A DNA stretch of 16,301 nucleotides, taken from positions 1 to 16,301 of IMG/VR virus record IMGVR_UViG_2541047164_000041; one strand, 5' to 3'. Made by a program: the position numbers. The DNA comes from a virus (Duplodnaviria; Heunggongvirae; Uroviricota; Caudoviricetes). This document shows positions 12,001 through 15,000 of the stretch, piece by piece. The number at the start of each line of letters is the position of its first letter. The first letter of the stretch is position 1.

Positions 12001-15000
12001 AAGGTTTGTTTTCATGACCGCTTTATAGCTGTAACCAGTACCGGAGAACAGCCAGATGCTATGGGATTCAGAAATTCAGCATCATGCCTGATTGGCGAAA
12101 TGTTCTCGTGCTGACTTGTTGGCAGATAGAAAAAAGCGTTTTCGTAAAAATCCGTCTCTTGGAATGGGCGACTGGCGATTCTTTATTAGTGAGCCGGGAA
12201 TTATTTCAATTGAGGATTTACCACCTGGCTGGGGATTACTTCACGTTGTTAACGGAAGAGTACGGAAAGTACATGGGTGGCCCAAGGGTAATTGCTGTTG
12301 GGGTAATCCTGACGATAAGCCATTTACTGGAAATAAGCAGGTTGAATGCGATTACATGTTGTCTGCATTAAGGCGCATGGAGTTGAGAGGGCACCTTAAT
12401 GAAATATATGACGGTGTAATTGTTAATAAGAAAGAAGGAAACGCGGCATGACCACTATTACCGACAAAGAACTGATTAAAGAAATCAAAGAGCGCATAGG
12501 CAGCTTGGACGTTCGAGACAATATTGAGCGCCGTGCTTATGAAATTGCACTGGCATCGCTGGAAGCAGAACCGATAGCGTGGGAATGCGGTGAAAACATA
12601 ATCCTGTTTAACCCTGACACAGTTGAAGCATACGCAAAACGTGCGGAAATATCACCTAAACCACTATTCTCCGCGCCGCCAGCGCTGGTAGTGCCTGATA
12701 AGTTGCCGCGTGAATACAGAAACGGTTGGCCTCTTGCGTATAGTGATTATGCTGAAGGCTGGAACGACTGCCGCGAAGCCATGCTTCAGGGAGATAAATC
12801 ATGATTAATCGTATCAAGCTGGAGCACATCCTCGAATATGCCAGGCAGCAGAGGCATATTGGTCAGCATTGTAAAATTCCACCAGGAGATATGGTTGAAA
12901 TCATGGAGATTGCCATGCGCAAGGCTGGCAACTCTCCGGTAACTCCGGATGGTTGGATAAGCTGTAGTGAGCGAATGCCGAACGATAAACAGTATGTTTG
13001 GTGTTGGGGGAAGTCTTACGGCTGGACTGAGTGCGATACCTTCGAAGGGTATTACGATTGTTCGAGAAACAAATGGTGGGCAGTTACTGACAATGGGGAA
13101 GAACCGGCATCGAAAGTAACCCACTGGATGCCGCTACCGGAGCCGCCGCAGGAGGTGAAATGATGAATTGGCCTGAAGCATTCACCGCAGTTGGAGTTGC
13201 AATAGCGGTGGCATTTATTCTGTATTCGCTTTTCCGCTGGGGATAAAGGAATGTTCGCTCTGATTCAACGTGGTCAGATATACACGGACAGAGCCGGATA
13301 CCCTGTGGTGATTACTCGCAGTACTCAGCACTCAGTGTTCTTTCGACGCATGGACGGGCGCTCCGGACGGGTACGCATTGGTGAGTTCAACAACCTGTTC
13401 GAACATATTGACCAACAGGAGTACCGCAAAATTCTGGCGGGCACTGAGCAGGAAATGCGCCTGAAAAAATTACGCGCAATGCAACGGAGGTGATACATGC
13501 ATACGGCTTTTGAGTTCTGGGTTCGCAAGACATTCGGCAATCGCTACGACCTGACCCGTGATGTCGACGGCTTCTACTGCCGTGAAGTTGTGAAACGAAT
13601 GTTTGACGTGTGGTGCCACTGCCGTGGATGAAAGTTTTATGAGGTTGGCATGCAGACAATCATCTATCAGATAACCCCCAGCAAATGGTGTACGGAGAGA
13701 GTCCTTATTGCATCAACAGGGCTAAAGCCCGGCACCATCGAGCGGGCCAGAAGAAAGTCATGGATGCAGGGAAAAGAATACCGCCATTACGCTGTAGTGA
13801 ACCGCCCCGGTTTTCCTGGAGAGTGTTTTATCTGTGAACTCAGGCTGCCAGATCATCGTTTCCGATGGAAGCATAATAAGCTTTTTCTGCTTCTGCCGGA
13901 GGAGTATGGCCCAGCCTTCCCAGCAATCGTCGATTGTTATACCAGTCCACCCACGTTAGTGTGGCCAGTTCCACTTCTGCACGGTTTTTCCAGCTCTTAC
14001 GGTGTATTACCTCCGCTTTGTAAAGACCATTGATGCTCTCAGCCATCGCGTTGTCATACGAGTCGCCTGTACTCCCTGTTGATGCCAGTAATCCGGCTTC
14101 TTTTAGTCGCTCCGTATAGGCCAGTGACACATACTGAGAGCCTTTATCGCTGTGATGGATGGTGCCAGACGGACGACGGGCCCATTTACCCCGGAGAACA
14201 CCGGCAAGTCCCATAACCGCCATGAGACGTGCCACTGTACATCTGGCCACCCTGATTCCTTCCCGTAACAACTGACGCCAGACTTTACGCACACCGTACA
14301 CCTGATGATTTTCATCGTATACGCGCTGTATCTCTCTCTTCAGCCAGTCGTCGTGCTGCGCACGGGCACTGCGTTTATCCGGATGATGTCGCTGTTGCTG
14401 ACAATGGTAATACGTTGACGGGGCAATATGCAGTTCGCTGCATACCGGTCCGACCCCGTACTGCTCACGCAGCTTATCCAGCAGTGGCATCATTTTTTCC
14501 AGAGGCGGTCGAACTCCGCCTTCGCAAAATAAGCGGAAGCCTGGCGAAGGATATCGTTACTGCGGCGCAGTTCACGATTTTCACGTTCCAGCTCTTTCAG
14601 ACGCTGACGTTCAGCGCTGGTGAGCCCACCATCACCGCCCCCGGTATCCCGCTCATGCTGGCGAACCCAGACACGCAGAGTCTCCGGCGTACAGCCAATC
14701 TTTGGGGCAATGGAACAAATTGCCGCCCACTGTGAGTCATATTCATCCTGACTTTCCAGAACCATACGAATCGCCCGCTGACGGACTTCGGGGGAAAAAC
14801 GAGTATTTTTAGTCATCCTGTTTACCTCTTTCTCAGGGAGTTTAGTCTCCAGGATTTCCGGGGCGGTTCAGTAGAAGGTGATCCTGGGCATTACAGTGAA
14901 TGCCTGTACAACATCGAAGAAATTATGCGATGGATCGAAAACCAGAAACAACCAGGTGCCAAAAATGCAAGTTCCGGTTAACCTGTTAATGCTCCTGGAC

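Follow-up and report, generated by a model that had tools for sequence, protein, structure and literature searches.

A deleted IS629 copy interrupts the putative excisionase gene of an Sp15-type Stx1 prophage in Escherichia coli O157:H7

The window analyzed here is a 16,301-nucleotide stretch of viral DNA (IMG/VR record IMGVR_UViG_2541047164_000041, positions 1 to 16,301) that, by comparison with sequenced genomes, appears to be the early-left arm, from the ninB/ninE side to int, of an Sp15/VT1-Sakai-type lambdoid Shiga toxin 1a (Stx1a) prophage integrated in mlrA (yehV) of Escherichia coli O157:H7. Immediately upstream of the integrase gene int, a 1073-bp copy of the insertion sequence (IS) IS629 splits a small gene that we identify by homology as a putative excisionase gene, xis. 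IS629 entered xis by IS3-type transposition, and we consider it likely that the internal deletion now seen in the copy was acquired later, by conversion, and that the Stx1 prophage is largely locked in mlrA.

Anatomy of the insertion

Sequence reading and a scripted check place the IS at 13798-14870, exactly 1073 bp, with its genes on the minus strand. Its ends are imperfect inverted repeats of the form 5'-TG ... CA-3' (TGAACCGCCCCGG... at one end and ...CCGGGGCGGTTCA at the other), which open with the identical 13 bases TGAACCGCCCCGG and agree with each other at 22 of their first 25 positions. A GTAG target-site duplication (TSD) stands immediately outside both ends, and the flanks are identical only when four bases are compared (k = 4), not at k = 2, 3, 5, 6, or 7. 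When 13650-13797 is joined in silico to 14875-14981, a single open reading frame (ORF) of 84 codons is obtained, with the stop codon TAA at 14979-14981 and the cut point of the IS at codon 49/50, after residue 49. The restored gene ends at 14981, and int, on the same strand, starts at 15015, across a gap of 33 bp. Because the GTAG duplication is clean and the empty site is perfectly restored, the interruption is a simple IS insertion. The initial annotation had placed the element inside a small ORF directly upstream of int, had stated that removal of the IS and one GTAG yields a continuous 84-aa ORF, and had read the intact TSD as the mark of simple transposition; all of this is borne out. The features of the locus, in window coordinates, are as follows:

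13650-13797, plus strand: 5' part of xis, codons 1-49 and base 1 of codon 50, 100% identical to Sakai Sp15 ECs_3012 'phage excisionase'
13650-14033, plus strand: fusion ORF of 127 aa, made of Xis residues 1-49 and 78 residues from the IS antisense strand
13794-13797: GTAG TSD, left copy
13798-14870, minus strand: 1073-bp IS629 (IS1203) copy from which 237 bp are deleted internally
13798-13822: IRR, the terminal inverted repeat at the orfB-distal end, which holds the site-specific T at 13811
13840-14493, minus strand: orfB', 217 aa, with a truncated DDE transposase domain; 79 aa are missing, including the Asp of W-V-A-D-F-T-Y
14184-14185: junction of the 237-bp deletion, corresponding to 15786-16022 of the F7349 segment, without microhomology
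14419-14535, minus strand: ALIL programmed -1 frameshift pseudoknot (RF01497, 121.5 bits, E 1.1e-31)
14490-14816, minus strand: orfA, 108 aa, intact, with an HTH_Tnp_1 domain (PF01527)
14846-14870: IRL, the terminal inverted repeat at the orfA-proximal end
14871-14874: GTAG TSD, right copy
14875-14981, plus strand: 3' part of xis, from the remainder of codon 50 to the stop, 100% identical to Sakai
15015-16301, plus strand: int, an intact tyrosine integrase of 428 aa with Arm-DNA-bind_2 and Phage_integrase domains, cognate to the interrupted xis

The fusion ORF at 13650-14033 keeps only positions 1-56 of the DUF1233 excisionase profile, and the identical 127-aa fusion ORF is called in the draft contig QGYL01000126.1. 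A promoter and terminator scan of 13200-15200 returned no sigma-70-like promoter and a single weak terminator-like site, within int; the same scan gave no sign of an IS-borne outward promoter driving int, nor of a pI-like promoter.

The interrupted gene

The initial annotation had taken the interrupted gene to be a possible excisionase gene, to be judged by alignment of the reconstructed 84-aa protein to excisionase families and by comparison with related prophages lacking the IS, and both comparisons point the same way. The reconstructed protein matches the Pfam family DUF1233 'putative excisionase' (PF06806) over its full length (positions 1-70 of 70, 101.4 bits against a cutoff of 22, E 2e-29) and PHROG 539 'excisionase' (E 1.6e-37). 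DUF1233 was the only family found in the Pfam scan at E<=0.01, in which the lambda Excisionase-like family went unmatched, and NCBIfam returned no family for the protein. The reconstructed 624-nt empty site is found at a query coverage of at least 80% in 505 genomes and, as one uninterrupted piece of at least 99% identity, in 338 records; thus, the xis-int junction is uninterrupted in more than 300 E. coli genomes. It is 100% identical to the corresponding stretch of Sakai prophage Sp15 (ECs_3012 'phage excisionase' and ECs_3013 'integrase') and of EDL933, as well as to phages VT1-Sakai ('xis' and 'int'), YYZ-2008, and phi330. Phages that carry exactly this xis can be induced and do excise (PMC2669165, PMC5931665).

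More distant relatives agree with this assignment. XisR and IntR of the K-12 Rac prophage share 27% (E 4e-7) and 43% identity with Xis and Int, respectively; XisR governs Rac excision and binds attR, and its deletion alters excision (Liu et al., PMC4632033). A solved structure is also related to Xis, namely the Klebsiella 'putative excisionase' PDB 2KVV (E 4.4e-5). An AlphaFold (AF2) model was built on a 99%-identical homologue from a shallow alignment, the word-indexed protein search having given only close E. coli and Salmonella homologues, and is of moderate confidence (predicted local distance difference test score 68.5). It contains a strand (13-15), two helices (16-23 and 29-35), two strands (43-46 and 58-62), and a final helix (63-73), a beta-alpha-alpha-beta-beta-alpha topology that would correspond to a predicted helix-turn-helix followed by a beta-hairpin wing. 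In a Foldseek search of the PDB with this moderate-confidence model, 2KVV was the best match (template modeling score 0.60-0.64), with MarR/PadR winged-helix regulators trailing weakly at E>0.1, and lambda Xis was absent from the hits. The IS falls between the two wing strands of the model (43-46 and 58-62), such that Xis loses the second wing strand and the conserved C-terminal helix, with the invariant residues Y61, N62, and W69, and keeps the helix-turn-helix and the first wing strand. We infer from homology that the interrupted gene is a full-length DUF1233/XisR-type excisionase gene, and the locus, in which int is intact, is predicted to be unable to make a functional Xis.

The IS copy

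Outside the deletion, the IS in the window is 100% identical to the IS1203-family copy of O157:H7 strain F7349, and its nucleotide identity to the annotated IS629 of VT1-Sakai (AP000400) is 99.8%. The initial annotation had assigned it to the IS3 family on the strength of IS629-type ends and OrfA, and the ends, the PF01527 match of OrfA, the ALIL element, and the identity to IS629 all uphold this assignment. The length of 1073 bp given there is exact, but it is a secondary length: the copy is a 1310-bp IS629 minus 237 bp, removed in frame, so that OrfB lacks 79 aa (KVRTT...LDALEQAL). Chance is not a credible explanation of the element, since it matches the VT1-Sakai IS629 so closely and its empty site recurs in one piece in so many E. 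coli records.

The lost residues include the Asp of the WVADFTY motif, which we take to be the first residue of the DDE triad. The shortened orfB' still carries HTH_21, rve_3, and a partial rve domain, and overlaps orfA at 14490-14493 in the -1 frame. Its rve match covers positions 60-101 of 102 at 29.2 bits, below the Pfam cutoff of 32.6, whereas the match of the full-length relative OrfB covers positions 2-101 of 102 at 96.9 bits; the Pfam scan thus finds no complete DDE (rve) catalytic core in the window copy. Because the deletion removes the first catalytic Asp, the copy is predicted to be a defective, non-autonomous derivative that cannot make an active transposase or move itself. It could still be acted on in trans, since both ends, OrfA, and the frameshift signal are kept.

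One further base distinguishes the copy. At 13811, position 14 of the orfB-distal inverted repeat, the window has T in place of the usual G; the T is common to the full-length IS at xis in F7349 and absent from the copies in Sp4, abgT, and EDL933. T13811 is, therefore, a useful marker of the xis insertion.

Full-length and deleted relatives of the copy

When 13400-15300 (1901 nt) was compared with the complete O157:H7 genomes F7349, F7508, AR-0429, and FRIK804, each aligned at 99.8-100% in two pieces spanning 2138 bp. In the F7349 alignment, there are no mismatches on either side of the 237-bp segment that the window lacks, the junction of which lies at 14184|14185. All four genomes thus hold a 1310-bp IS629/IS1203 at the identical base of xis, with orientation and GTAG duplication unchanged. 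RefSeq annotates both xisR halves around the full-length IS as pseudogenes, and the draft contig QGYL01000126.1 has a full-length IS629 at xis as well. Beyond the 237 bp, these full-length carriers match the window at 100%, the unusual T at 13811 included.

The deleted form occurs elsewhere. The identical 1073-bp form is the 'partial IS629' that adjoins pchA in Sakai prophage Sp4 (ECs_1089/ECs_1090) and in EDL933. The Sp4 copy (5674-6746 of the retrieved segment) agrees with the window copy at 1072 of 1073 bases, the sole mismatch being 13811 (T in the window and G in Sp4), and stands without a target duplication, between the flanks TTAA and ATCC; the missing TSD implies a rearrangement or deletion adjacent to the Sp4 copy. 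In abgT, a full-length IS629 is present in about 93 O157 genomes; at exactly this site, and flanked by the identical AAA duplication, the complete genome FRIK1989 and the draft contig AERQ01000013.1 carry the 1073-bp form instead (2124-3196 of the AERQ01000013.1 segment and 1409489-1410961 of NZ_CP111101.1). Another deleted copy, with two mismatches and one gap, lies at the start of contig AVQV01000012.1 (segment 37-1108) next to plasmid genes (TraT). The deleted form is thus present in at least four contexts, namely Sp4, abgT, xis, and a plasmid.

All copies have one and the same deletion junction, at which there is no microhomology. Without microhomology, identical junctions are expected to be identical by descent, and we rejected recurrent, independent deletion of the same 237 bp on these grounds.

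The host prophage

Over 13.8 kb, the window and the early-left region of Sakai Sp15 share 99.9% identity, and int (ECs_3013) is 100% identical. It ends at the int stop codon at one side and stops before Q and stx at the other. The context beyond these limits comes from relatives: the draft contig AVQT01000042.1, a 100% match to the window across 4962 nt, runs on past int into mlrA, and in F7349, with a near-identical locus, mlrA (yehV) directly follows int and the prophage carries stxA1a/stxB1a and a complete lambdoid late region.

A second lesion lies at 2958, where 7 bp present in Sakai Sp15 are deleted from the window. A tandem TTTTCTT is thereby reduced by one copy, and the lambda-O-type replication gene is frameshifted and split into ORFs at 2526-3008 and 2894-3457, on the minus strand. 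The frameshift is common to F7349, where RefSeq labels the product 'replication protein, frameshifted', and it is predicted to inactivate the gene. The prophage is, in any case, decaying. Elsewhere in the window, a lambda cIII thermoregulator RNA element at 7909-7967 on the plus strand (RF01804, 88.5 bits) is as expected in a lambdoid early-left operon.

In F7349, a second full-length IS629 lies outside the region covered by the window, in the head protease/capsid gene (13636-14849 of the retrieved segment). It is inverted relative to the xis copy, and if the two copies recombined, about 30 kb of the prophage would be inverted.

Other mlrA-integrated prophages have independent IS629/IS3 hits in the same arm, in int (61_150228), in a DUF4222 gene (AH20K059 and E110019), and further upstream (OkiPb01711), at retrieved-segment coordinates 3166-4379 (L007), 2543-3756 (L005 and L006), and 919-2132 (L008). 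The int-xis end seems to be struck repeatedly by IS elements in prophages at this site. Four hits (H5, H6, H8, and H10) were considered as further xis insertions and rejected, the IS lying in int, in the DUF4222 gene, or upstream. The xis-int junction query detects up to four similar loci per O157 genome.

Proposed history and alternatives

The window IS joins the end marker of the xis site, T13811, to an Sp4-type interior, and is explained most simply by two events: one insertion of full-length IS629 into xis and, afterwards, ectopic gene conversion with the Sp4 copy as donor. We propose the following course of events:

(i) A full-length, 1310-bp IS629 would have inserted into xis at codon 49/50, duplicating GTAG.

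(ii) The interior of the IS would later have been replaced by the 237-bp-deleted Sp4 allele, with ectopic gene conversion among IS copies as the most likely route. The abgT pattern points to movement of the deleted allele from one IS629 locus to another in this manner.

(iii) The product would be a transposase-dead IS in which both ends, OrfA, and the frameshift signal survive and which could be moved or excised only with transposase supplied in trans by other IS629 copies.

(iv) Upon induction, Int would act without its directionality factor, and in the absence of that factor, Int-mediated recombination between attL and attR is expected to be strongly reduced. Given the split xis and the intact int, excision is probably lost, and the decaying Stx1a prophage would be largely fixed, or locked in, in mlrA. 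The impaired excision that the initial annotation expected is a reasonable prediction.

Several points weigh against this account. The sole public sequence found with the deleted form in xis is a draft contig, AVQT01000042.1, and the window itself lacks one T in each of two short runs, at 1206 (TTTT to TTT) and 10718 (TT to T), when compared with Sakai and with F7349; these losses may be sequencing errors of a draft assembly. (The former changes the last codons of a small hypothetical gene, and the latter is intergenic.) The gene conversion step is one that we infer from comparative patterns. Prophages Sp4 and Sp14, without a functional Xis, still excise after mitomycin C, apparently by Int alone (Asadulghani et al., PMC2669165). 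Lastly, removal of IS629 is aided by IEE in a transposase-dependent manner (PMC9943667), so reversion of the excision block is conceivable.

The deletion might, then, be an assembly artefact, with a full-length IS629 in xis through which an Sp4-type copy was threaded at the repeat. The draft status of the only matching contig and the T-run deletions are in keeping with this, as are the 1310-bp form in four of four complete genomes with xis::IS629 and the deleted form, in a plasmid context, in a sister assembly of the same accession series (AVQV01000012.1). However, the complete genome FRIK1989 shows a switch from full-length to deleted IS629 at abgT, so such switches appear to occur, and AVQT01000042.1 is a 320-kb contig that is continuous through the IS. 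We regard an artefact as improbable, and xis is disrupted whether the deletion is real or not. If real, the deletion could also have arrived with the element, a 1073-bp IS629 having itself transposed into xis after mobilization of the Sp4 copy in trans by the transposase of a full-length IS629. The defective copy has the parts that such a move calls for (both inverted repeats, OrfA, and the frameshift signal), its flanks show a clean 4-bp duplication, and the deleted form is spread over several contexts. Yet relatives have the full-length IS629 at the exact position, with the same orientation and duplication and with the T13811 that the Sp4 donor lacks, so direct transposition would require an independent hit on the same base plus the same single-nucleotide change; the abgT site, full-length in about 93 other genomes, likewise fits conversion and not a new insertion. 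This route seems to us very improbable.

A different objection accepts the insertion and questions its effect: the loss of xis may be functionally neutral decay in a prophage that still excises, by Int alone or with the Xis of another lambdoid prophage, or that was already dead. The behavior of Sp4 and Sp14 speaks for it, together with the frameshift already present in O, the IS629 in the capsid-protease gene of relatives, and the several xis-int-like loci in each O157 genome. Directionality factors, however, as a rule serve only the integrase and arm sites of their own system, as is established for lambda, HK022, and P22. Sp15, in which xis is intact, leaves the chromosome spontaneously and responds strongly to induction with mitomycin C or sulfamethoxazole-trimethoprim (SMX-TM) (PMC2669165; PMC5931665), and the effect of the homologous xisR deletion on Rac excision, with the binding of XisR to attR, also weighs against neutrality. 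We think that neutral decay is unlikely, though it deserves to be kept in mind, and we continue to favor insertion, conversion, and a prophage probably locked into the chromosome.

Implications

If xis::IS629 blocks excision, there would be a small O157:H7 sub-lineage with an Stx1a prophage that is unable to leave mlrA. In that sub-lineage, stx1 would be vertically fixed, without transduction; mlrA, and hence curli and biofilm regulation, would not be restorable via prophage loss; and the locus would be a stable lineage marker for typing. The case would add one more documented step in the IS-driven domestication of toxin prophages, of use to epidemiology and to models of prophage decay. A more speculative idea, to which we give very little credence, is that the 237-bp-deleted allele spreads from locus to locus by ectopic conversion (xis, abgT, and possibly a plasmid) and that its OrfAB might trans-dominantly inhibit IS629 transposition and IEE-assisted excision, thereby stabilizing xis::IS629 and helping to fix the Stx1 prophage; such inhibition is conceivable because the truncated OrfAB keeps the DNA-binding and multimerization parts without the first catalytic Asp.

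Comparison with known systems

Among the IS elements of O157, IS629 is the most numerous, and its copies cluster in prophages (PMC3271280); the exact xis::IS629 allele is already machine-annotated in RefSeq genomes. In the literature on IS629 together with mlrA or excisionase, we found only an Stx2c case and no paper that discusses this allele. The insertion is an ordinary instance of a known process, with no new mechanism, and the only mildly interesting point is the apparent spread of the deleted IS629 allele between loci. The element has the hallmarks of IS629/IS1203 (IS3 family, IS51 group) of E. coli O157:H7 and Shigella, namely TG...CA repeats, a 3-4 bp duplication, orfA/orfB, and ALIL, and differs in the absence of 237 bp (79 codons) of orfB and in the T for G at inverted-repeat position 14. 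With the 'partial IS629' of Sakai Sp4 and EDL933, it shares the deletion junction and 1072 of 1073 bases, but that copy adjoins pchA without a duplication, whereas the window copy lies in xis with a perfect GTAG duplication.

The reconstructed Xis resembles lambda Xis as a small protein encoded immediately upstream of int in a lambdoid prophage, and it would be expected to act as a recombination directionality factor, although there is no sequence-family match between the two. The Rac module of E. coli K-12 also has a DUF1233 Xis, the same integrase architecture, and xisR directly upstream of intR, but it is intact and uses ttcA, in place of mlrA, as its attachment site. A precedent for the insertion is O157 strain 9000, in which IS629 lies in the excisionase gene of an Stx2c prophage and for which IS 'entrapment' of prophages was proposed (Shaaban et al. 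2016, PMC5359411). Here, too, IS629 lies in the excisionase gene of an Stx prophage and capture in the chromosome is proposed, but the prophage is an Stx1a prophage in mlrA and the IS is itself transposase-defective.

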